DNA of 64,000 nucleotides from Trueperaceae bacterium (GCA_034520945.1 JAXHNB010000009.1:1-64000), one strand, 5' to 3'. Shown: positions 17,694 through 34,684, numbered from the stretch's first letter. Translations and numbers: made by a program. The notes: generated by a model from the sequence alone, not told the origin.

Positions 17694-18560
17694 TCACGCC
17701 CGCGCCCCTTCGGCCCGCACGGGATTGTGGACCTCGCCCACGCCGGTCACGACGCAGCCTATGGTGTCGCCGTCCGCCAGGACCGCGGCGCCGGGCGTGC
17801 CGGTCGAGATCATGTCGCCCGGTTCGAGGGTGGAGACGTGCGAGAAGAACGACACCAGCTCCCAGGGGCCGAAACGCATGTGCGCGACCGTGTCGCGCCG
17901 GTGCTCGCGCGATCCGTGCAGGGTGGCGACCTCCACCTTCGTGATGTCGGGCACTTCGTCCACGCTGACCATCTCGGCCCCGACCGACAGGAAGGTGTCG
18001 AACGACTTGGCGCGGGTCAGGAAGCGCGGGTTGCGCTGCAGGATGTCCTCCGCCGTCATGTCGATCACCGCCACCAGCCCGGCCACGACCGAGGGCGCAT
18101 CCGCCGCAGGCACGTCTCGGCAGCGCCGCCCGATCACCAGCGCCAGTTCGGCCTCGCCGGTGGTGCGCTGGCTGGCGCGGGGGATCACGATCTCGTCGCC
18201 GGGGCCAACGATCGTGGTGGCCGGCTTCATGAAGGTGGCGGGTTCGCTGGGGCGTTCCTCGCCCAGGTCGCCGGCGTGCGCCTGGTAGTTCAGCCCCACG
18301 CCGAGGATCTTGGGGGGGTGCAGCAGCAGCGGGGCGGGCCGGACGTCGTCGCCGAGCCGCTCGGCCTCCCGTACGGCGTCCTCGTGGGCGTCGAGCCAGG
18401 CCCGCAGCTCCCCCAGGCGGCCGCTGGCGAGGAGGTCGTCGACGGTGATGGGCCACAGCGTGCCGGCCGTCCGGTTCAGGGTACGCAACGACACCCGGCC
18501 TTCGGGTACGACCACGCCCGCACGCGGGCCGCCCGGCGTATGAAAGCTGCAGAGGCGCAT
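17694..18560 (-). CDS. Fumarylacetoacetate hydrolase family protein
   Basis: GVGLNYQAH; EAELALVIG; RAKSFDTF; LEPGDMISTGTPG. Confidence 0.88.
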   Translation of the reverse strand: MRLCSFHTPGGPRAGVVVPEGRVSLRTLNRTAGTLWPITVDDLLASGRLGELRAWLDAHEDAVREAERLGDDVRPAPLLLHPPKILGVGLNYQAHAGDLGEERPSEPATFMKPATTIVGPGDEIVIPRASQRTTGEAELALVIGRRCRDVPAADAPSVVAGLVAVIDMTAEDILQRNPRFLTRAKSFDTFLSVGAEMVSVDEVPDITKVEVATLHGSREHRRDTVAHMRFGPWELVSFFSHVSTLEPGDMISTGTPGAAVLADGDTIGCVVTGVGEVHNPVRAEGARA

Positions 18561-19778: not shown

Positions 19779-19810
19779 CGGCCCCTTCGCACGGGTCGGC
19801 GAAGGGGCCG
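19779..19810 (-). terminator. Stem-loop downstream of the LysM lipoprotein gene
   Basis: 12-bp stem CGGCCCCTTCGC / GCGAAGGGGCCG; weak U-tract. Confidence 0.55.
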
Positions 19811-19846: not shown

Positions 19847-22800
19847 TCAGGCGGCGTCCTCCTCGGCGACCGTCTCGTCCTCTTGCTCGTCCTCCAGCGA
19901 GGGAATGATCAGGACCATGCCGTCGAAGATCAGGTCCGGCTCTTCGATCAGGTTCGCGTTGGCCTCCAGGATCTCGGGCCAGAGGTTGCCGTTGCGGTAG
20001 AAGAACGTGGCGATGCTGGAGAGGCTGTCACCCTCCTGGACCGTGTAGATGCCGCGGGCGCCGCTGAGGCGGGCGACCTCGTTCTGGGTCTGCTGCAGCT
20101 CGCTGCGGATCTGGGCCAGCTCGTCGCGTTGCGCCTGCGTCGTCTCGGCAAGTCCGGATTGCTCCTCCAGCACCTCCTCGAGGCGCTCGGTCAGCGTCGA
20201 CGCGCGGCCCTGGGCCGTCTCCAACTGGGAAGCGGTGGACTCGAGTTGCTCTTCGGTCTGCTCCCGCTCAGCGCGCACCGTGTTCAGCTCGCTCTGAAGC
20301 TCGTCGCGTTCCGCCGTGACGGTGGTCAGCTCCTCTTGGAGCTGATCGCGTTCGTCCGTGACGGCGGACAGGTCCGCCTGCGCGGCGTCGCGCTCGTCGC
20401 GCACCGCGGCCAGGTCGGCCTGCAGGGCGTCGCGCGCTTCGGCGAGCTCGGCGAGGTCGGCCTGAAGCGCGTCCCGTTCGCTTCGCACCTGCTCGAGTTC
20501 GGACGCCAGCGCGTCCCGTTCGGCGCGGACCTCCTCGAGCGTGCCCTGTACGTCTTCGAGGGAGGCTTCGCGCGTTGCGAGGCTCTCTTCGAGCTCGGCC
20601 ATCTCGGCTTCACGCGCTTCGAGGGCCTGCTCACGCTCGGCCACCTCGGCCTCGCGCGTGGCCAGCGTCTCTTCGAGGGTCGCCATCTCGGCCCGCACCG
20701 AGGACAGCTCCTCCTGGGCAGCTTCGAGGTCGGACGCGAGTGCGTTGCGCTCTGCCGACATCGCCGACAGGTCGTCTTGCAGCGAATCCCGCTCGGCACG
20801 AACCTCCTGCAACGCTGCCTCGGTCTGGGCCAGCTCCTCCGCGCGTTCCGCCTCGGCCTCACGCGCTTCGGTCAGCTGCGCCTGCAAGTCCGCCTCACGC
20901 GCTTCCGTGCGCTCCCGCGCGTTCAACGCACGCGCCAACTGCGACTCGACCGTGGACAACGACGCCTCGGCCGCTGCCAACTCGGACCGAAGCTGATCGC
21001 CCCGCGCCTCCGCAGAATCCCGCGCGTTCGATGCCCGTTCCAAACGACTCTGCAGGTCGTCCCGCACTTCACGAAGCTCGGCCAGCTCCGCTTCCTTCGC
21101 GCTCACCTGCTCCTGCGCCTCCTGCGCCTCCGCCTCGGCAGCGTCGGCACGCGCCTCGGCGGTCTCGCGGGCGTTGGTGGCACGCGCCAAGCGCGCCTCC
21201 AACTCGTCCCGCGCCGCCTGCGCCTCGGCAAGCTCCGCTTCGCGGGCCGACAGGGTCTCCTGCAAGCCCGTCAATTCGGCCTGGGCCGACGCCAACGCCT
21301 CCTCCGAAGCGCTCAGGTCGGCCGCCAGCGTGTCACGCTCCTCCGACAGCGACGCCACCTGCGCCTCGAGCGAATCCCGCTCGGCACGAACCTGCTGCAA
21401 CGCCTCCTCAGCCTCGGCCTCTTCCTGCGCGCGGGCCTCCTGGCTCTGCCGGGCCTGGGCCAACGCGTCTTCGCGCTCGGCCAGCATCTCCTCGGCGTCG
21501 GCCAGGTCGGACTCCCGTGCGGCAAGTGCCTCCTCGCGCTGGGCGAGCGACTGCTGGAGCGCATCGCGTTCGTCCCGGACCTGAGCCAGCTCGGATGACA
21601 TGGCGTCGCGTTCGCTCCGTACCTCGTCCAATGTGCTGCGCACGTCGGCCAGTGAGGCGTCGTGCTCGGCCACGTTCGCCTCGAGCTCGCTCAGTTCGGT
21701 CTCCCGCGCCGCGAGCGTCTCTTCCCGTTCCGCGAGGGCGGCCTCGCGCGCCGCGAGGGACTCCTCGAGAGAGGTCATCTCCGACTGGACCGCGTCCAAC
21801 TCCTCCATCGCAGCGTCGCGCTCGTCCGCGATCGCGTCCCGCTCCTCGCGCACGCTGGCGAGTTGCGCTTCGACTTCGTCGCGTTGCTCGGCGGCCTGGG
21901 CCTGGGCGGCCTCGGCGTCGCGAAGCTGGGCGTCGGTCGCTTCGCGTTCGGATTCCAGCTCTTCGATCCGGCCTCGCAGCGCCTCGAGCTCCTCCTGTTG
22001 CTCGCTGACCGTCTGGCGGGCCTCCGCCAGCTCGGCGTTGGTGGCCTCGAGCTCGGCGTTGGCCGCCTCCAGTTCGGCCCTGGCCTCGTCGACGGCGCTT
22101 TGCAACGTGCGGACGTTGGCGAGGGCAGCGTCGCGTTCGACCTCGGCGATGGTCAACGCGGTCGAGCTCTCTTCGCGCGCTGCTTCGAGCTCCTCGACGC
22201 GGGCCTGTGCCTCTTCGGCTTCGGCTTCGGCCTCCTCGGCCCGGGCGATCACCTCTTCGAGTTGGGCCTCTGCCTCCTGGGCACGGGCCTCGGCGGCGTC
22301 GGCACGCTCCGCGGCGGTCTCGCGGGCGTTGGTGGCACGCGCCAACTGCGACTCCACCGTCGACAACGCGTCCTGCACCGACGCCAACTCGCTGCGAAGC
22401 TGATCGCCGCGGGCCACGGCCGAGTCCCGCGCATTGGCGGCACGTTCCAGTCGCTCCTGCAACGCATCGCGTTCCTCGCGAAGCTCCGCCAGGTCTGCCT
22501 GCGTATCGCTCAGCTCCTCCTGTGCCTGCTGCGCCTCGACCTCGGCGGCGTCGGCGCGCTCGGCGGCGGTCTCGCGGGCGTTGGTGGCACGCGCCAAACG
22601 CGCCTCCAGCTCGTCCCGCTCTGCCTGCGCCTCCGACAACTGGGCACGCAGCTCCGCCTCGCGCACCTCGGCACGCTCCCGCGAATTCAACGCACGCGCC
22701 AACTGCGACTCCACCGTGGACAACGCGTCCTGCGCCGCGCCCAACGCCTCCTCGGAAGCGCGAAGCTCGTCTGAGAGTGCGTCGCGCTCCTCCGTGAGCG

Positions 22801-23383
22801 AGTCCAGCCGTTCCTCGAGCGCGTCGCGCTCCTCGCGCAGGGTGTCGATCTCGTCCTCGAGCTCGCTCAGGCGGGCTTGCGCCTCTTGCGCACGGGCTTG
22901 AGCCCGTTCCGTGAGCTCCTCGGCGCTGGTGCGCGCGGCGGCGGTCGCTTCCAGTTCGGCCGCCAGCTCGTCCCGCTCGGCGCGTGCCTCTTCGAGGGAG
23001 GCTTCCAGTTCCTGCGCCCGCGTCGAGGCGTCCGACAGCTCCTGATCGGTGGATGCGAGCGCGTTCTCGAGGTCGGCGTTCTCCTCCTGCAGCGCGTCGA
23101 CGGTGTCAGACATCGCGTCGCGCTCCCCCTCGAGCTCGTCGACGCGGGTCTGAAGCTCTTCGAGCTGGGACGTGGCCTCCTCGGCCTCGGTCTGAGCCTC
23201 TTCCGCGCGGGTTTCGGCCGTGGAGAGCTCCTCTTCGAGGGAGCCGACCTGTTCGCTCAGCTGCTCGTTCTCGGACGCCAGCTCCTGTTCACGTTCGCTG
23301 GGCCCGCAGGCCGCCAGCGCCACCACGAGCGCGAGCAGGGCCGCGAACCCGAACGAACGACGAAGCCATCTGGGGGTCTTCAT
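19847..23383 (-). CDS. Giant coiled-coil lipoprotein with C-terminal LysM domain
   Basis: Lipobox LAA-C; about 1080 aa E/A/L/R heptad region with no Pro or aromatic residues; YTVQEGDSLSSIA...LIFDGMVLII LysM; AGGAGG RBS. Confidence 0.85.
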   Translation of the reverse strand: MKTPRWLRRSFGFAALLALVVALAACGPSEREQELASENEQLSEQVGSLEEELSTAETRAEEAQTEAEEATSQLEELQTRVDELEGERDAMSDTVDALQEENADLENALASTDQELSDASTRAQELEASLEEARAERDELAAELEATAAARTSAEELTERAQARAQEAQARLSELEDEIDTLREERDALEERLDSLTEERDALSDELRASEEALGAAQDALSTVESQLARALNSRERAEVREAELRAQLSEAQAERDELEARLARATNARETAAERADAAEVEAQQAQEELSDTQADLAELREERDALQERLERAANARDSAVARGDQLRSELASVQDALSTVESQLARATNARETAAERADAAEARAQEAEAQLEEVIARAEEAEAEAEEAQARVEELEAAREESSTALTIAEVERDAALANVRTLQSAVDEARAELEAANAELEATNAELAEARQTVSEQQEELEALRGRIEELESEREATDAQLRDAEAAQAQAAEQRDEVEAQLASVREERDAIADERDAAMEELDAVQSEMTSLEESLAAREAALAEREETLAARETELSELEANVAEHDASLADVRSTLDEVRSERDAMSSELAQVRDERDALQQSLAQREEALAARESDLADAEEMLAEREDALAQARQSQEARAQEEAEAEEALQQVRAERDSLEAQVASLSEERDTLAADLSASEEALASAQAELTGLQETLSAREAELAEAQAARDELEARLARATNARETAEARADAAEAEAQEAQEQVSAKEAELAELREVRDDLQSRLERASNARDSAEARGDQLRSELAAAEASLSTVESQLARALNARERTEAREADLQAQLTEAREAEAERAEELAQTEAALQEVRAERDSLQDDLSAMSAERNALASDLEAAQEELSSVRAEMATLEETLATREAEVAEREQALEAREAEMAELEESLATREASLEDVQGTLEEVRAERDALASELEQVRSERDALQADLAELAEARDALQADLAAVRDERDAAQADLSAVTDERDQLQEELTTVTAERDELQSELNTVRAEREQTEEQLESTASQLETAQGRASTLTERLEEVLEEQSGLAETTQAQRDELAQIRSELQQTQNEVARLSGARGIYTVQEGDSLSSIATFFYRNGNLWPEILEANANLIEEPDLIFDGMVLIIPSLEDEQEDETVAEEDAA
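21158..22597. repeat. Three identical 33-bp intragenic repeats
   Basis: GGCGGTCTCGCGGGCGTTGGTGGCACGCGCCAA at 21158, 22313 and 22565. Confidence 0.85.
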
Positions 23384-23586
23384 TCCAGCACCTCCTGGAT
23401 GCGAGATAGGCGTGTGTAGACGTCCACAGCATACGCGTTCGGAGGGGGGTCACGCAGCCGGTGCCCGCGCGGCCGCCCATGGCGGATCCTCCTGGCCACG
23501 ACGAGGGGGCGAACCGTGCGACCGGCCCGCCCCCGTTCGAGACCCACCTCGTGGAAGGCGCCGCACGGGGCGCGCCTAGCGACGGA

Positions 23587-27163: not shown

Positions 27164-29083
27164 ATGATCGAGTATCGCCATCGTGCTCGGCTGCGCGGCG
27201 TATGCCGATCCCTCGATCGCGCGATACGCACGCTGCTGCTCGCGGGGCTCTTGCTGGTAATCGGCGTGGCGTGCGACCTCACGAACGGAGCTTCGTGGCA
27301 ACACGAGGGTACGTACGCGATCACCTCTGCCCACTATGCCGCGACGGAAGCCGGCATCCGCGTTCTGGAGACGGGCGGGTCCGCCGCCGACGCCGCGGTC
27401 GCCGTCGCGACCGCCTTGAGCGTGGTCGAGCCATGGTTCTCGAGCGTGCTGGGCGGCGGGACGTGGGCCCTGTACTACGACGCGGAGACGGGAAACGTCA
27501 CCAGCCTCGACGGGGTCGGTCCCGTCGGCAGCGGTGCGTCGGTGGCCGACTACGAGTCGCGCGTCCTGGACGCGGGCATGCACCAGGCGATCGTGCCGGG
27601 CGCGTGGGACGGTTGGATGTTGTGGCTGGCGCGATACGGTCGACTGCCGTTGGGCGAGGTGCTCGCACCCGCCATCCAGTTGGCGCGGGAGGGCCATCCC
27701 GCCAGCCCCGAGTTGGTGGCGTGGCTGCGGCGCGACCGGAATTTGGTCCTGTCTCACCCGCCCTCCGCGGCGATCTACGCACCGGAGGGCGAGCTCCTGA
27801 ACGTGGGCGACACCGTGTACCAACGCGCCTTGGCACAGACATTGGAAGCGATTGTCGCCGCGTTCGACGCGGCCGCAGACCAGGGACGCTCGGCCAGGTT
27901 ACAGGCCGCTCGGGATCACGTGTACCGCGGGCCGGTAGCCGACGCCATCGTGGCGGCCTCGGACGCCGGCGGTGGGTACCTGACCACGGACGACTTCGCC
28001 TCGTTCGCGGCGGAGATCGTCGAGCCGATCTCCATCCAGTACGAGGACGTCGAGGTGTTCCAGAACCCACCCAACAGCCAGGGCATCACCATGTTGCTGG
28101 CGCTGAACATCCTGAACGGCTTCGATCTGGCGGCAATGGACCCCGACGATCCCGACGCTGTGCACCTGCAGGTCGAGGCGCTGAAGTTGGCCTTCGCGGA
28201 CCGGAACGCCTACGTCGGCGATCCCGAGCGTGTCGACTTGCCCACCGAGCAACTCCTGTCCCAGGCGCACGCCGAACGGCAACGTGCACGCATCGCGTTG
28301 GACGACGTACTCGAGTGGCCGATCGCTCCTGGCCTCGAGCCCGAAAGTATCCCCCCGCCCGACCTGCCCACGGGCACTACGACCTTTCACGTGCTCGACG
28401 CCGAGGGCAACGCGGCGGCGGTCACCACCAGTCTGGGCGCGCAGTTCCTCGTGGTTGGGGACACCGGCGTCCACATCAACAACCGCATGCGGTTCCTGGC
28501 ACTGGAGGAAGGCGATCCGAACCGCTTGACACCGGGATTCAAGGTCAGGCACACGTCGAACCCCTACATGGTGCTCCACACGGGCCGACCGTACGTGCTA
28601 GGCGGCAACACGGGCGTGGACACCCAACCCCAGGGGCAGCTGCAGCAATTCCTCTCGGTGCACGCGTTCGGCACGACGCCGCAAGACGCGATCGATCGCC
28701 CACGATTCGTGTCGACTGCCTTCCCGGCCTCCACGTATCCGTACCGAGTACGTAACACCCTGCAGCTCGAGCTCGACTATCCTCGCTCATTACGGAACGC
28801 TCTCGAAGCAAAGGGCCACGACGTTCACCTCGGTCAGGGAATCTTCGGTTCCGCGAACATGCTGGTCGTAGACGTGTCCGGCGTCGCGGCCGGATCCGAG
28901 TCGCGTACGTCGAGCGGCGCCCACGAGGTGTTCTCGGACCCGGTCCATGTGCGCGAAACTGCCCACGACCTGCTTGAACCCGTACGCACCGCCCGTCCGT
29001 TCAGATACTCCTCGTCGAGCGTAGGACGCGTTCCGCCTCCCCCCAACCGACACCCAAGAGGGCAAAGACCAGTGGCTCCATAG
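27164..29083 (+). CDS. Gamma-glutamyltransferase-family Ntn hydrolase, probable lipoprotein
   Basis: GGSAADAAVA; VPGAWDGW; PPNSQG; nucleophile region GTTTFHVLDAEGN; lipobox-like IGVA-C; TATAGT 6 nt before the ATG. Confidence 0.85.
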   Translation: MIEYRHRARLRGVCRSLDRAIRTLLLAGLLLVIGVACDLTNGASWQHEGTYAITSAHYAATEAGIRVLETGGSAADAAVAVATALSVVEPWFSSVLGGGTWALYYDAETGNVTSLDGVGPVGSGASVADYESRVLDAGMHQAIVPGAWDGWMLWLARYGRLPLGEVLAPAIQLAREGHPASPELVAWLRRDRNLVLSHPPSAAIYAPEGELLNVGDTVYQRALAQTLEAIVAAFDAAADQGRSARLQAARDHVYRGPVADAIVAASDAGGGYLTTDDFASFAAEIVEPISIQYEDVEVFQNPPNSQGITMLLALNILNGFDLAAMDPDDPDAVHLQVEALKLAFADRNAYVGDPERVDLPTEQLLSQAHAERQRARIALDDVLEWPIAPGLEPESIPPPDLPTGTTTFHVLDAEGNAAAVTTSLGAQFLVVGDTGVHINNRMRFLALEEGDPNRLTPGFKVRHTSNPYMVLHTGRPYVLGGNTGVDTQPQGQLQQFLSVHAFGTTPQDAIDRPRFVSTAFPASTYPYRVRNTLQLELDYPRSLRNALEAKGHDVHLGQGIFGSANMLVVDVSGVAAGSESRTSSGAHEVFSDPVHVRETAHDLLEPVRTARPFRYSSSSVGRVPPPPNRHPRGQRPVAP

Positions 29084-30491
29084 CGATGGAGAAAAACCAC
29101 GCTTGCGCCCAGATGGCGTAGACGAGCAAGGCTGACGCGACGCCCCACGTGACGGGGGTCGCGGCCCGCACCATTCGCACGAACAACGACACGAGCAGAA
29201 CGACGAGCAGGGCCGTCGGGACGACACCATACGCGATCCAAAGGTCCAAGAGGTAGTTGTGGACCTTGTCGTGAATGACGGGCCGCCTGACTTCTTCACC
29301 GCTGACGGGATCACGGTACATGAGCACATTCTGTATGCGTTCGGCCGACCCCATCGCGCCCTCGGGAATCTCCATGCGCATCAGGCGCGCGGTCTCTGCT
29401 TCATTCGCGCTGCGCCACACCATGATGGTGAAAGAGCCCACCCCGTACGGCCGCAGGGGCTGCTGCGCGATCGCCCTCGACGCGACGCCCATGAAGGTCC
29501 GCCTAACCTCCCAGCTTCGTTGCCCGCTGTTCTCGATGACAGCGCCGCCCACGGAGGCCGCTCGCTCTTGAAGGTACGGGCTTGCCACGAGTCCGAGCGC
29601 GAACGCCATCACAACGCCAACGACGCCACCCACAGCGTACCGACGCCCCCAACCGGGCACCAGCCTCACAACCACCGCCACCAACCACACCACGAACACC
29701 CCGTACAACGCCGCCTCCGCAGCCACGCTCCCAGCACGAATTGCCGCGTACCACAGATACACGCTCGTGGCCAGCAACGCAATGCCGCGCCAGGGACCGC
29801 CCCGCGTCTTCGGCTCCACCAACAGGTTTACCACCAGTATCGCCGCCGTCGCGGCGAGTACAGACACGAATCCTGAGTTGCCCAGCGTCGACCTTGGCGG
29901 GCGCGCACCGAGTCCGTCCACACCCAGCCAGGCCCACACGTCGAATCCCCCAGCCTGCGCGACCGCAATCCCTCCGACCAGCACCGCCGCCCCCGCGTAC
30001 GCGGCGATCCCCAGGTAGGCGGCCCGCTCGGACAGGAACGACAAGCGCGCCATTGCACCCGAGATCAACAAGCAGGTCAGGAACAGAAATGCGCCGTCGA
30101 ACCTGAAATCGAATCCAAAAAAACCAATGCGTGTTGGTGTCTCAGTAGCAAGCACTGCCGACGCTGCAAACCCCAACGCAGCAAGGATCGCGACTCCCAC
30201 GACACGCTCTCGCGAATACGCCCGCGTTCCGCCCCGCACCGCGACCCCGACTCCACCCAGCCCTATAGCGATGACCGCGCAGAGCACCCCCACGGTCAAG
30301 CTAACCAACTTCGGCGTGACATAGAAACTTCCTTGCCCAATGAAACCGAACATGGGTCTTGGATCCACCGCGACCGCGTGCATCACCATGAAGCCGACCA
30401 TCAGCCATGCACCGACCCACACCCTGCTGCGCCTCGCGCCAAGCACCCGGTTTCCCTCCTCTGCGGCACCATCGTACGCCAATGCTTCCAC
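29001..30491 (-). CDS. O-antigen ligase / O-oligosaccharyltransferase (Wzy_C) family membrane protein
   Basis: About 11-12 TM segments; STLGNS; large loop with R...PYGVG...DKVHNYLLDLWIAYG; start uncertain. Confidence 0.7.
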   Translation of the reverse strand: MEALAYDGAAEEGNRVLGARRSRVWVGAWLMVGFMVMHAVAVDPRPMFGFIGQGSFYVTPKLVSLTVGVLCAVIAIGLGGVGVAVRGGTRAYSRERVVGVAILAALGFAASAVLATETPTRIGFFGFDFRFDGAFLFLTCLLISGAMARLSFLSERAAYLGIAAYAGAAVLVGGIAVAQAGGFDVWAWLGVDGLGARPPRSTLGNSGFVSVLAATAAILVVNLLVEPKTRGGPWRGIALLATSVYLWYAAIRAGSVAAEAALYGVFVVWLVAVVVRLVPGWGRRYAVGGVVGVVMAFALGLVASPYLQERAASVGGAVIENSGQRSWEVRRTFMGVASRAIAQQPLRPYGVGSFTIMVWRSANEAETARLMRMEIPEGAMGSAERIQNVLMYRDPVSGEEVRRPVIHDKVHNYLLDLWIAYGVVPTALLVVLLVSLFVRMVRAATPVTWGVASALLVYAIWAQAWFFSIAMEPLVFALLGVGWGEAERVLRSTRSI

Positions 30492-30617: not shown

Positions 30618-33600
30618 TTATGGGTTGATGACCGTCGTCTCTGAGACGGGCCCGACCGGTACGCTCTGCGTCCCGGGATTCCCGTACGTCAACTCAGCGT
30701 CCACGTCGAACTCACCGGTGTCAAGCGCTTCCGCTTCGATGACTACCCGGATCCACTCACCGGGGCTCACGTCAATGGCGTCGAACGTAACCACGTTTCC
30801 GGCAAGGGTCGCCCCAACGCCGGCAGGCGACGACCACGGATCGCTAACTCCACCGTCGGAACTCACGTAGAGGTCTGCTGTGCCCGTGAATCCCATCTGG
30901 TCAGGCGAGGAGCCACCAAGATCTTCAACCTCGATCACGACGTCCTGCGCAGGCTGATCGCCCACGTTCTGAGACGTGAACCGGTAGTAGTAGACGTCGT
31001 CGACATTGACGTTCTCGTTCTGCGGATCGCCCGGATCGCTGTCCGGTGCCTCTCCATTCGTCGACAGGTTCATCGACGGCTCGCCCGAGGGCGGCACGAC
31101 GGCGACCGGATCGCAGACATCCGGCAACGCGAGCCCCTCGACACTCCCACCGAAGCGGAAGTCGGAGCTGCTTGTCGCATCGACGCTCTCCTGGAGCCAC
31201 TCAGCGTCAGAATCGGTCGTGATCTGACTCTGGGTCCACGGTGCGTTCGACACCGTCGCGTACCACGTGTCGCCAACGTCCGCTTTACCGGGCTGGTTCA
31301 ACTGATCCGCACCGAGGTACAAGCAGTTGTTCCAAGCGTTGAACGTGCCTGCACCGCTCGTGACGATGTTGTCTTCCAACGGATCGGACGGGTCGTAGTC
31401 GGTGTCGCTGTTGTTGAGCGCGTTGCCCTCACCGTCGTCGCTCAGCAGATTGCCCGTGAGGGTCAACTGCGCCACGCCGGTCACACCAGCATCGAGCTCT
31501 GCCACGCTCCAGCTGACTTCCTTGTCGGTGCCAGCGTTCGAGGTGTCGATGGTACCGAGCGTGTCACCGTTCGCCGTGAACGGCGTACCGTTGGTGAAGT
31601 CGAGTCCGACCTCCCAGGCGTCCGTGACCTCGAGCCCTTGCGCGTACGCGTTGTTCCTCAACTCGTAGCCGGGGGCTTGATGACCGTCGCCTTGCGTGTC
31701 GTCTCCGAACTCCCACGGGTACAGCTCGCGCAGGAGCTCGTACGCTTCGCCGTCGTCGTCGGAACGATCCACATTCGTGATCGACAGCTCGTACGTCGCC
31801 GAAGCGCCGCGCTCCATTACGCTCTGACTGACCCGCTCCTTGGTGATCTCGAAGATCGGGCGCACCACCCAGATGTCGGACTCGTCGTCCTCGGGGCGAT
31901 ACTCGAACACGGGCTGCGAGCCGCTCACGTCGTCGGGCTCGAAGAAGCCCGCTGCCGTGACGCTCCCAGAGGCGCGTCCGTTGGTCACCGCGTACGGATC
32001 GGCGTAGCAGTCCGCAGGGTCGTCGGGCTGGACGTCGAAGTTGGCGCTGTCGGTGCTGTCCCAGCAGTACCCCGGCTTCTGACGTGCGTACACGTCGAAC
32101 TCGAGCTCGACCTGTTCATCCTGGAGCACGTCCTGCAAGGCCGGCGAAGAGTTGAAGTCCCACGTGACCACGTGGTTTTGGGAATCGTAGGTGCCGCCAT
32201 TGCTGATGGTGCTCTCGACGACGCCAAGCTCGGCCGGCACGGCGTCCCGAATGGTCACGTTGTAGATGTCGCTGCCACTGTCGTTCGACACCGTCACATG
32301 CACGGTAGACGTCCACGGATCAACCGATGCCGTCGACGCGTTCGCCGCATCGAGCGTGACGTCAGGGCCAGCCCACGTCAGAACGTGGTTGTCAACTTCC
32401 TTGTCGAGCGTGAGGAAGCCACCGACCCATTCCTTCGTGAAGGTGTAGTCCTTGAGCTCGAAGGTGTACAGCTCGTTGCCGTACGGGAACACCGCTACGT
32501 ACGTCGCCTCGACGTCCACTTCGATGGGCAGGTCCTCGAGTGAAACATCGTCGTCGGGGACCAACGACACGCCAGTCTGCGTGCCGGATGCAACGTCATC
32601 GATGCAGACGGAGCCGTCGTCACTCAAGGCGTCGCACCTCGTCTCGTTCCACGAAACGACATCGTCGTTCTCGCCGGACAGCTCGTACCTCATGTAACCA
32701 GGGAAGCCCGGGAAGTCCCACGCGTATCCGTAATCCGCGATGACGCTTTGCAACCCCGATCCACCATTCAGACCCAGGACCGTGGCGTCTGGGGTATTGC
32801 CTGGGGTTGCGCCGTTGAACAGGAATTCCTGCCAGCAGCCTTCCGGGAGGAAGGTCAACTCGCCTTCATCGTCGAACTCGATGTCGCAATCGAGCGTGTC
32901 CCCAACAGCGAACGGCCCTTCGGACGGCTGCTTCTGCAGCGCGAACGTACCGAAGTGGTGGGCATTGTCGCCTTGCGGATCCCAAATGTTGATGATCGTG
33001 CCAAAGTCGGCCCCGAGCCTCTGGTCGGTGTACTGGAGTTCGGGCTCGAAGTCTTCGTACTCGGCCTCCGGGCCCTGGGTCTCATCGACCCAACTTTCGG
33101 AGCCGACGAGCACGTAGTCCGGGGAGGACTCTTCCTCGTCGATCTGCTCCAGCGGGAACATCTCGCCGAGCCACAAGTGCGACATGTTCAGGAAGAACGT
33201 CTTGAACTCGACGCGCTTCGCGACATTGTCACCACCGACGGCGCTCACGATCAGCTTGGTCGGCTCGGCCTGGAACTCGTCGTCCTCAAAGGCGTTCAGG
33301 ATCTCCTGCCACGAAATGTCCGCGTTCGTCGCCTCGATGACGAAGTGCGCCATCCCCGCATCGTCCGTGACGAGGCCCTGGAAGGTCTGGGTCGCGGAGG
33401 CCGAAAGCCCGGCCGTCGGCTGCCCCGAGTAGATCGCGAGCGCGTCGCTGAAGTCGCCCGTAATGCTCACGGTGACCGGAGCGTTGGTCACGGGATCGCC
33501 GTTCTCGTCCAAGACGAGCACGGACACGCCGACCATCTCTTCGGTCTGCGCGGCGACAAGAGTCGCATCCTTGACGTCATTGACCTCGTCCACTGTGTCG

Positions 33601-34019
33601 TAGGCATTGCCGTCGACATCCGCGAAGCTCAACTCGAGAGAGTCGACGTTTGCGACACCTTCGCTCTCAGCCACGAGCGTGACGTTGACGACCGTCTCAT
33701 CGCCTGCAGACACCGTGACACTCTGTTGGCCACCGTCGAGATACCCATCCGCTGTCGCCTCGACGGCGTACGTGCCTGCGGCCACGTCGGGAATGGTGAA
33801 CGTACTAGCGTTGGATTGGCTTCCGAGCTCGTTGCCCTCGGAGTCCGTGACGACGATTTGGGCGTCGACGGGGTTACCGGTGTTGGCATCCGACACGTTG
33901 ACCACGAGGGTGCCCGTGTCAGGGCCGTTGCCTCCGTTGTCCCCGTCGTCGCTGGTCCCGCAGGCGGCCAGAATCATGGCCGACGCTACGAGCAGCAACA
34001 GATACTTGAGCATATTCAT
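30618..34019 (-). CDS. Large acidic surface lipoprotein with carboxypeptidase-regulatory-like and DUF11 Ig-like domains
   Basis: Lipobox ILAA-C; GTYAVEATADGY; VTVSNDSGSDIYNVTIRDAVP...VVTW; ATYELSITN; FTSQNVGDQPAQDVVIE; AGGAGG RBS. Confidence 0.78.
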   Translation of the reverse strand: MNMLKYLLLLVASAMILAACGTSDDGDNGGNGPDTGTLVVNVSDANTGNPVDAQIVVTDSEGNELGSQSNASTFTIPDVAAGTYAVEATADGYLDGGQQSVTVSAGDETVVNVTLVAESEGVANVDSLELSFADVDGNAYDTVDEVNDVKDATLVAAQTEEMVGVSVLVLDENGDPVTNAPVTVSITGDFSDALAIYSGQPTAGLSASATQTFQGLVTDDAGMAHFVIEATNADISWQEILNAFEDDEFQAEPTKLIVSAVGGDNVAKRVEFKTFFLNMSHLWLGEMFPLEQIDEEESSPDYVLVGSESWVDETQGPEAEYEDFEPELQYTDQRLGADFGTIINIWDPQGDNAHHFGTFALQKQPSEGPFAVGDTLDCDIEFDDEGELTFLPEGCWQEFLFNGATPGNTPDATVLGLNGGSGLQSVIADYGYAWDFPGFPGYMRYELSGENDDVVSWNETRCDALSDDGSVCIDDVASGTQTGVSLVPDDDVSLEDLPIEVDVEATYVAVFPYGNELYTFELKDYTFTKEWVGGFLTLDKEVDNHVLTWAGPDVTLDAANASTASVDPWTSTVHVTVSNDSGSDIYNVTIRDAVPAELGVVESTISNGGTYDSQNHVVTWDFNSSPALQDVLQDEQVELEFDVYARQKPGYCWDSTDSANFDVQPDDPADCYADPYAVTNGRASGSVTAAGFFEPDDVSGSQPVFEYRPEDDESDIWVVRPIFEITKERVSQSVMERGASATYELSITNVDRSDDDGEAYELLRELYPWEFGDDTQGDGHQAPGYELRNNAYAQGLEVTDAWEVGLDFTNGTPFTANGDTLGTIDTSNAGTDKEVSWSVAELDAGVTGVAQLTLTGNLLSDDGEGNALNNSDTDYDPSDPLEDNIVTSGAGTFNAWNNCLYLGADQLNQPGKADVGDTWYATVSNAPWTQSQITTDSDAEWLQESVDATSSSDFRFGGSVEGLALPDVCDPVAVVPPSGEPSMNLSTNGEAPDSDPGDPQNENVNVDDVYYYRFTSQNVGDQPAQDVVIEVEDLGGSSPDQMGFTGTADLYVSSDGGVSDPWSSPAGVGATLAGNVVTFDAIDVSPGEWIRVVIEAEALDTGEFDVDAELTYGNPGTQSVPVGPVSETTVINP

Positions 34020-34684
34020 TGCTTCCTCCTGCTTTGGGTTTTTTGCGACCACGTTTGTGTCATGGCTTTCAAGTGCGAACCCTCCCTTGACCTGAGCGGT
34101 CGTCTAGCTCCTCCGTCGCGATGTCGGCGCGCGGCCGAAGCCACCACGTAGGCGTGGCGCCCTAGGGTACCACGATACGGGCAACCCCCTCATGGAGCAA
34201 GACGAGAAAGGTTGCGAGCCACGCACGGGTCCTGCGTGTAGAGAACGGATGGTCACGAATGATCAGTCCCGCTGGTCGGAAACGCGAGTGGTCCGAGTTT
34301 CCTCTGCTTCCGAGCCCCGGGCACGTCACCCGCGCCAAGACTGCTGACGGTTGCCAGACCGCTGTCCCGCACCTCCTTCCGCGCCAGTCCACACAAGCGC
34401 CAACATCCGCCTGCGACTATCGCACGCGGACACGTCCCTGTCAACGAAAATGCCACTCCATGAGGGCTTCTTGTGAGCGAGTTCGCATTGGCACGGACGC
34501 ACTTGACCCACGCACTCGTGCCCAAACGCACAGGCCGGACGTGCTCCCGTCGCGGCCCAGGGTTGGCCGCGAGCCGCGGTCCGTGTGGCCTGTCGGCGCA
34601 CACGGACGCTGGACGGCACCTCGCGCGTCTCGCTCCCCCGCACGATCATGCGACGTTCGCGGGGAAAACCCTCATCTCCTTGCA

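Follow-up and report, generated by a model that had tools for sequence, protein, structure and literature searches.

Little is known about the means by which diderms other than Proteobacteria keep membranes and cell wall at set distances from one another. For the lipoprotein Lpp, stalk length matters for envelope spacing, as reported in two studies (PMC5736177, PMC8824477). For Deinococcota, PMC9388160 has SlpA/OmpM as the only such element described, and gives a periplasm of 121 ± 4 nm and an SlpA stalk of 28 nm for Deinococcus radiodurans. The present study concerns one gene on a 64,000-nucleotide stretch of DNA from a Trueperaceae bacterium (GCA_034520945.1 JAXHNB010000009.1:1-64000; the whole stretch is termed the window in the following). 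The gene is located at 19847..23383 on the minus strand, as are all features described for it below, and codes from an ATG start for 1178 amino acids plus stop. As judged from its sequence, the product belongs to a family, widespread but so far without a name, which combines a membrane anchor, a coiled coil, a conserved neck and a LysM domain, and it is unusually long for this family. We tentatively interpret it as a lipid-anchored, parallel dimeric rod of ~160 nm which probably resides in the inner membrane and is tied to peptidoglycan via its C-terminal LysM domain.

A preliminary description of the locus, made from the DNA alone, had placed the protein next to Lpp, Thermotoga Omp-alpha and SlpA. 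This comparison stands as a functional analogy and not as membership, since the window protein possesses neither a C-terminal Lys nor an SLH domain or a beta-barrel. It shares with Lpp/OprI the lipobox, an all-helical coiled-coil stalk with an Ala-rich core and a putative membrane-to-peptidoglycan link. In contrast to Lpp, it is ~19 times longer, carries a non-covalent LysM in place of the C-terminal Lys cross-link, probably resides in a different membrane and yielded a dimer on modelling, Lpp being trimeric. Its C-terminus (...VAEEDAA) offers no Lys for covalent wall attachment, and the alanine zipper model of Lpp/OprI (NF040598) aligned with residues 13–91 at 25.1 bits, below its cut-off of 43. 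Common to SlpA/OmpM, Omp-alpha and the window protein is a coiled-coil stalk leading from membrane to wall in deep-branching diderms, the length of which varies between species; the window protein differs from SlpA/OmpM in the polarity of its modules and in yielding no Pfam match to an SLH domain or beta-barrel, SLH genes being located elsewhere in the genome. The closest solved LysM is that of Escherichia coli Kbp (YgaU), a small cytoplasmic potassium sensor. The corresponding model PRK11198 reached 49.2 bits (cut-off, 134 bits) with only the LysM part aligned, and the window protein, unlike Kbp, has no BON domain. Analogues for which no sequence relation was seen are Helicobacter Csd5 (transmembrane helix, coiled coil and wall-binding SH3 domain) and the periplasmic filament CrvA of Vibrio, which likewise join a membrane anchor or export signal to a coiled coil, in the case of Csd5 with a wall-binding domain at the end. 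NlpD is also a lipoprotein with LysM, and EnvC also a periplasmic coiled coil; unlike NlpD, DipM and EnvC, the window protein lacks a LytM domain. Membership of the SMC, Rad50 or crescentin proteins was rejected, as the NCBIfam matches and Rod_CreS (37.9 bits versus 100) remained below the cut-offs. The remaining Pfam matches are to coiled-coil families of eukaryotes, of which some (CENP-F_leu_zip, ATG16, GAS, CCDC113 and DUF4200) pass their low cut-offs; no non-coil domain is involved, and all these hits were read as composition matches.

Heptad register and internal duplications of the rod

The rod comprises residues 30–1107 (20063..23296), as delimited by heptad occupancy and Fourier analysis. 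Residues ~30–1105 form a single heptad register of ~154 heptads without phase-shifting stutter, far beyond chance: the residues L, I, V, M and F occupy the seven positions (modulo 7, residues 30–1105) at frequencies of 0.05, 0.02, 0.02, 0.60, 0.00, 0.01 and 0.48, and the Fourier power is 20.6 at a period of 3.5 and <1 at other periods. To our knowledge, 154 heptads without stutter rank among the longest uninterrupted heptad coiled coils in any protein. The 154 a positions are occupied mainly by Leu (75), Arg (36), Ala (13) and Val (12), the 154 d positions by Ala (49), Leu (48), Val (22), Arg (13) and Thr (10). Over long stretches, a 14-residue super-repeat (L-x-x-V-x-x-E / R-D-x-L-x-x-E) places Arg at alternate a positions. 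Ala (21.4 %), Glu (20.7 %), Leu (11.9 %) and Arg (9.8 %) lead the composition, Pro is found only at residues 4, 28, 1136, 1149 and 1161, Lys only at residues 2 and 763, and aromatic residues are confined to the parts before residue 14 and after residue 1112. If straight, the rod would measure ~160 nm (1075 residues × 0.1485 nm, a textbook value). The preliminary description had proposed a heptad-like stretch of about 1080 residues without Pro or aromatic residues and with one Lys, reaching ~160 nm; the heptads extend over ~1075 residues in one register, the compositional claim is exact for residues 29–1112, and the reach was calculated correctly.

The protein as a whole bears a net charge of −201 per chain. 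Similar acidity is displayed by the SlpA-type protein of the same genome (−0.14 per residue) and by the Trueperaceae orthologues, the median of the wider family being −0.025, so that the acidity looks like an adaptation to the habitat.

A diagonal identity scan revealed two prominent repeat pairs within the rod. Residues 237–371 (22271..22675) are identical to residues 706–840 (20864..21268) in 89 of 135 positions at an offset of 469, i.e. 67 heptads, and residues 519–630 (21494..21829) resemble residues 883–994 (20402..20737) at an offset of 364, i.e. 52 heptads. Each of the 27 offsets listed between internal repeats is divisible by 7, which indicates that the protein was lengthened by segmental duplications preserving the heptad phase. 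The repeats are 57–66 % identical at the protein level; a self-BLAST of the protein for repeats returned the identity match only. Judged by these repeats, the rod is stretched two- to three-fold beyond the family norm through segmental duplications in heptad phase.

The listed parts of the gene are tiled, with 0–2 differences, by short contigs from two runs of one sample, which is probably the source sample, and the sequence occurs in runs carrying the label salt pan metagenome, with no RNA run among those listed. The gene is not covered from end to end by any one contig, and hence the arrangement and copy number of its internal repeats rest on a 10-contig assembly. A contig of run X4 (depth 4.4), representing a related strain ~96 % alike, skips 336 nt at window positions 20866–21203, inside the duplicated segment 20864–21268. 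The skip corresponds to 112 codons or exactly 16 heptads and is a weak hint that in-phase length polymorphism may occur.

Predicted membrane anchor, neck and LysM domain

The N-terminus MKTPRWLRRSFGFAALLALVVALAAC displays a positively charged n-region (K2, R5, R8 and R9), a hydrophobic core FGFAALLALVVA and the lipobox L-A-A-C with Cys26, in agreement with the pattern [LVI][ASTVI][GAS]C. Residues 1–26 (23306..23383) were accordingly read from the sequence as a type II signal peptide. Of 15 orthologues aligned, 13 have a lipobox, which continues as C-G-P-[SN]. Genes for Lgt and LspA were found in the genome; no match to the Pfam model of LolA was obtained in this 97 % complete genome, with the D. 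radiodurans control being positive. The anchor types among 56 representatives of the wider family (see below) comprise 28 lipoboxes (mostly C-G-P-S), 12 uncleaved N-terminal hydrophobic helices and two ordinary signal peptides, the remaining 14 being fragments without N-terminus; this typing follows crude rules of our own, with one case corrected by eye. A transmembrane anchor is also carried by an 836-residue family member in a Truepera bin. Since a transmembrane anchor is only possible in the inner membrane, its use by some relatives suggests the inner membrane as the place of the family's anchor.

At the other end of the rod, a helical neck (residues 1049–1110; 20054..20239) represents the rod part best conserved across the family, as evident from alignment A1 of the last 130 residues. 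It is followed by the LysM domain (residues 1113–1161; 19901..20047), recognized by Pfam PF01476 (27.3 bits; cut-off, 20.9), by the predicted fold and by Foldseek, and by an acidic C-terminal tail (residues 1162–1178; 19850..19900) which is not conserved in alignment A1. The LysM motifs GDSL, IA, N and G-x-x-L-x-IP are kept, and the consensus of the orthologues in this region reads ARGIYTVQPGDSLSSIAxFFYRxGNRWPDIL.AN..LI.DPDLIF.GMVLVIP. The AlphaFold2 (AF2) model of the last 130 residues, calculated with alignment A1, reached a pLDDT (predicted local distance difference test) value of 91.5 and a predicted template modelling score (pTM) of 0.79. In the numbering of this model, the neck is made up of two helices (2–28 and 35–59, pLDDT >90), and the LysM adopts the beta-alpha-alpha-beta fold with strands at 63–66 and 109–112 and helices at 73–81 and 84–93. 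Best Foldseek matches were the LysM of E. coli Kbp (7vcm, 8zex and 7pvc; 41–46 % identity, root mean square deviation 0.6–2.4 Å), with LysM-like baseplate modules from phages and injection systems coming next and wall-binding LysM domains thereafter, e.g. that of a Thermus thermophilus NlpC/P60 endopeptidase. Four LysM-bearing genes are present in the genome.

Modelling the last 230 residues as two copies yielded a score of 0.59, the best of three controls scoring 0.00; among proteins of known structure, 20 of 30 pairs of one chain attain the mark set for this score, compared with 1 of 23 single chains. Agreement between runs amounted to at least 94 % of contacts, and the pLDDT of the partner was at least 83. 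Contacts connect residue i to residue i at every 3–4 residues between 949 and 1107, fall on the assigned a and d positions and continue unbroken up to the LysM. The model supports a parallel in-register dimer for the C-terminal part, in the sense of being consistent with binding. Arg at 36 of the 154 a positions and Asn at two (residues 39 and 102) conform to the coiled-coil rules for a parallel dimer. The lipobox and the single C-terminal LysM named in the preliminary description are thus both present, and the multimer modelling which it had proposed as a check returned this dimer.

Distribution of the family and setting of the gene

Whole-protein searches of 40 related genomes plus G000 gave matches in 26 of the 41, including 21 of the 24 from the same family. 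Fifteen complete orthologues are built alike, from a signal peptide, then a coiled coil and finally a LysM at the C-terminus, at lengths of 325, 333, 402, 407, 443, 484, 500, 542, 630, 659, 709, 720, 1013, 1178 and 1708 aa; within the genus of the window's organism, lengths range from 402 to 1178 aa. A profile of 129 positions was built from alignment A1 and includes the window protein itself, the match of which (180.5 bits, positions 2–129) is therefore given by construction, the evidence lying in the matches of the relatives. In an order-wide sample of 201 genomes, the profile matched 43 of 53 Trueperaceae, two of them on the LysM only; outside the Trueperaceae, a full-length match was obtained in G030 only, all other matches there being confined to the LysM. 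In a family-wide sample, 59 of 81 Trueperaceae genomes matched at E ≤ 1e-18, a tally which takes in genome G226, left out of all other comparisons. The search for this architecture and its length spread, suggested by the preliminary description, thereby recovered the same plan in many relatives and also beyond the Trueperaceae.

Among 1.84 billion representative proteins, 162 matched the profile at E ≤ 1e-30. Fifty-six representatives were fetched from 150 of these, namely those with the best stretch covering most of the profile; the others of the 150 are very short fragments or proteins with several LysM domains that match through the LysM alone. The representatives have a median mature length of about 300–345 aa and a maximum of 593 aa, many are Lys-rich and of low GC content, and metagenome bins with the labels Sedimenticola, Burkholderiaceae, Burkholderiales and Binatia (Pseudomonadota and others) contain full-length members. 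The usual family size is 300–600 aa, and the rod of the window protein is the second longest of 38 measured. A homologue search among proteins of 647–2062 aa found none at E ≤ 1e-10; among shorter proteins, 35 matches were found, named at most "nucleoid-associated protein YgaU". Best scores in a protein atlas comparison were 0.83–0.85, below the 0.9 level, and serve as a lead only. Pfam and NCBIfam hold no name for the family beyond LysM.

Some Trueperaceae harbour two or three family copies in tandem (G150:C1:468152-470121, G166:C13:3710504-3712484 and G177:C25:7137-11799); the window's genome has one copy. In a further genome from this organism's genus (G005:C11:14000-21000, locus L021), two frames of 633 and 421 aa that overlap one another represent the orthologue, which could be due to a frameshift or to mis-assembly of repeats in the draft.

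The gene is preceded by the Shine-Dalgarno sequence AGGAGG (23391..23396), 7 nt 5' of the ATG; the motif is also located upstream of orthologues. A GC-rich hairpin (19780..19809) lies 38 nt past the stop codon. It has no U-run and a z-score of −1.35 versus shuffled sequences, i.e. nothing unusual for DNA of 70 % GC, and a terminator and promoter scan at the locus returned 0 sites. Of the ribosome-binding site and 3' hairpin attributed to the gene previously, the former and the stem of the latter are therefore present, the stem being weak evidence for a terminator. The upstream neighbour is an ABC peptide transporter; downstream lie the genes for a zinc alcohol dehydrogenase and for a member of the FAA-hydrolase family. 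The latter two are common neighbours within the lineage only, the five distant loci having unrelated neighbours. The FAA-hydrolase-family gene (window positions 17694-18560, minus strand) is found beside the family gene, not always in the same orientation, in several genera of Trueperaceae (loci L013, L014, L019, L024 and L027); from the loci compared, this looks like lineage synteny, with no functional link evident. Further along the window, a stretch of lower GC content (0.62–0.65 versus ~0.70) contains an open reading frame (ORF) of 1144 aa (30618-34052, minus strand) with Pfam matches to CarboxypepD_reg and DUF11, suggestive of a large surface or envelope protein. The adjoining ORF of 496 aa (29001-30491, minus strand) has no Pfam match.

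Possible role in the envelope

The genome encodes an SlpA-type protein of its own (968 aa) with an SLH domain, a 263-aa stalk and a barrel ending in YTVAF, which marks the organism as a diderm equipped with the tether customary in Deinococcota. In the tentatively preferred arrangement, the window protein would be exported as a lipoprotein and cleaved at Cys26, which would leave its N-terminus anchored by lipid to the cytoplasmic membrane, on the outer leaflet. Residues 30–1107 would form a continuous parallel in-register coiled coil, most likely two-stranded, and the short conserved neck would present the LysM domains at its far end for non-covalent binding of peptidoglycan. The rod may then serve as a compliant tether or strut, and not as a rigid ruler, joining inner membrane and wall within the wide and wall-filled periplasm typical of Deinococcota. 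With the periplasm of D. radiodurans at 121 ± 4 nm, as given in PMC9388160, rods of 40–240 nm would not be absurd in this phylum.

Rod length (anchor to LysM) was compared with SlpA stalk length (SLH end to barrel start) in 38 Trueperaceae genomes. Left out were one genome with SlpA split over contigs (G016), four in which the barrel-start motif was not found (G222, G042, G212 and G075), six with fragmentary or duplicated SlpA or with paralogues (G219, G196, G089, G230, G182 and G150), and G226. Rods have a median of 498 aa (interquartile range, IQR, 395–599; range 261–1630), stalks a median of 221 aa (IQR 195–228; range 92–816). A first sample of 13 genomes had given a Spearman rho of 0.52 (p 0.066), which dropped to 0.20 (p = 0.22) with 38 genomes; for 21 genus means, rho was 0.18 (p = 0.42). 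Inside single genera, the correlation goes either way (+0.64 in g1, negative or flat in g11 and g26). Of the five genomes having rods of at least 775 aa, four (G218, G228, G014 and G000, from four genera) also have stalks of >250 aa, versus 1 of the 33 others (Fisher p = 3e-4, with thresholds set after seeing the data). Weak support is thereby given to some connection of rod length with the dimensions of the envelope. One of these genomes encodes, next to its 861-aa rod, an SlpA-like protein with an 816-aa stalk in an open frame of 1552 aa (G228:C1:1434281-1438909, locus L187).

Several observations weigh against the inner-membrane tether. Overall, rod length does not track the SlpA stalk, and the longest rod (G017, 1630 aa) is paired with an ordinary 208-aa stalk. 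Together with the five-fold variation of rod length among close relatives, the missing overall correlation argues against a strict ruler or fixed-length spacer. The preliminary description had considered an undescribed envelope spacer: undescribed it appears to be, as no account of a lipoprotein or transmembrane anchor combined with coiled coil and LysM, nor of the Trueperaceae envelope, was found in the literature (subscription journals not covered). Rods of the wider family would exceed the width of the proteobacterial periplasm, and since some of them belong to bins labelled Pseudomonadota, a perpendicular span cannot be the general geometry. The heptad continuity is not kept in the family, several orthologues having register shifts, and the helix of the AF2 monomer breaks at protein residues 1077–1082, where the dimer model is unbroken. 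The score of the two-copy model may reflect likeness to the coiled-coil dimers abundant among solved structures. Gly, and not Asp, follows the lipid-bearing Cys, which by the sorting rule of E. coli, possibly not valid here, directs a lipoprotein to the outer membrane, and the LolA model does recognize its control in D. radiodurans. The LysM modules of Kbp and of the baseplates are cytoplasmic and not known to bind the wall; these being the nearest solved LysM domains, peptidoglycan cannot be assumed as the ligand. Finally, no conserved gene neighbourhood backing any role was detected among the lineage relatives and five distant loci compared.

Some of these observations would be met by an Lpp-like, non-covalent tether of the outer membrane, with the lipid in its inner leaflet and the LysM holding the wall beside SlpA. 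The Gly after Cys26, the sub-cut-off match to Lpp/OprI, the Ala residues at 49 of the 154 d positions and the coincidence of the longest rods with the longest SlpA stalks agree with this placement. We nevertheless regard it as distinctly unlikely, since relatives with an uncleaved transmembrane helix cannot sit in the outer membrane, LolA was not found in the genome with the Pfam model, a C-terminal Lys for covalent linkage is missing, and a rod ~4 times as long as the organism's own SlpA stalk (1075–1086 versus 263 aa) could not stand upright in the same gap. The variable rod length, its independence of the stalk overall and the excess of wider-family rods over the typical periplasm width are accommodated by a scaffold lying in the plane of the periplasm, i.e. 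a dimeric rod along wall or membrane, pinned by lipid and LysM, which would organise, e.g., wall growth, division or cell shape and not distance. The sub-threshold likeness to the crescentin rod and the analogues CrvA and Csd5 point the same way. Such a scaffold appears somewhat unlikely to us, given that no sign of higher-order assembly motifs and no conserved neighbours from division or shape pathways were found, and that it would not lead one to expect long stalks alongside the longest rods.

The likeness of the LysM to Kbp and baseplate modules, the label YgaU given to relatives in the sources and the strongly acidic rod (−201) would also suit a LysM that binds a protein or an ion and not the wall, the rod then being a periplasmic adaptor or polyanion brush. 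The conserved motifs of the LysM, the predicted export of the window protein, unlike Kbp, and the acidity shared with the organism's own SlpA and absent from the wider family, which is likely due to habitat adaptation, render this explanation very unlikely. An artefact, be it a mis-joining of repeats in a gene that is truly shorter or a gene that is not expressed, would be in line with contigs which break at the repeats and do not span the gene, and with the orthologue of G005 reading as frameshifted pieces. It is considered highly improbable, because the gene reads without interruption for ~1200 codons in DNA of 70 % GC and keeps one heptad phase throughout, its listed pieces tile with 0–2 differences, repeats of only 57–66 % protein identity make collapse or expansion by the assembler unlikely, and relatives of 1013 and 1708 aa exist.

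For the inner-membrane tether, the farthest-reaching form would be that the family represents an unrecognised second length-setting element of the diderm envelope, a parallel dimeric strut which spans the periplasm from the inner membrane to peptidoglycan and is tuned together with the SlpA stalk. We hold this to be unlikely; if true, the rod of ~160 nm and the stalk of ~39 nm, both stretched here, would imply an exceptionally wide periplasm. The unbroken rod of 154 heptads is also attractive for coiled-coil biophysics and protein design. With a natural series of rods of ~40–240 nm, the relation of stalk length to periplasmic width becomes directly testable outside E. coli, in a widespread and unnamed family that appears to couple a membrane anchor to a candidate wall-binding domain via a coiled coil free to evolve in whole heptads.

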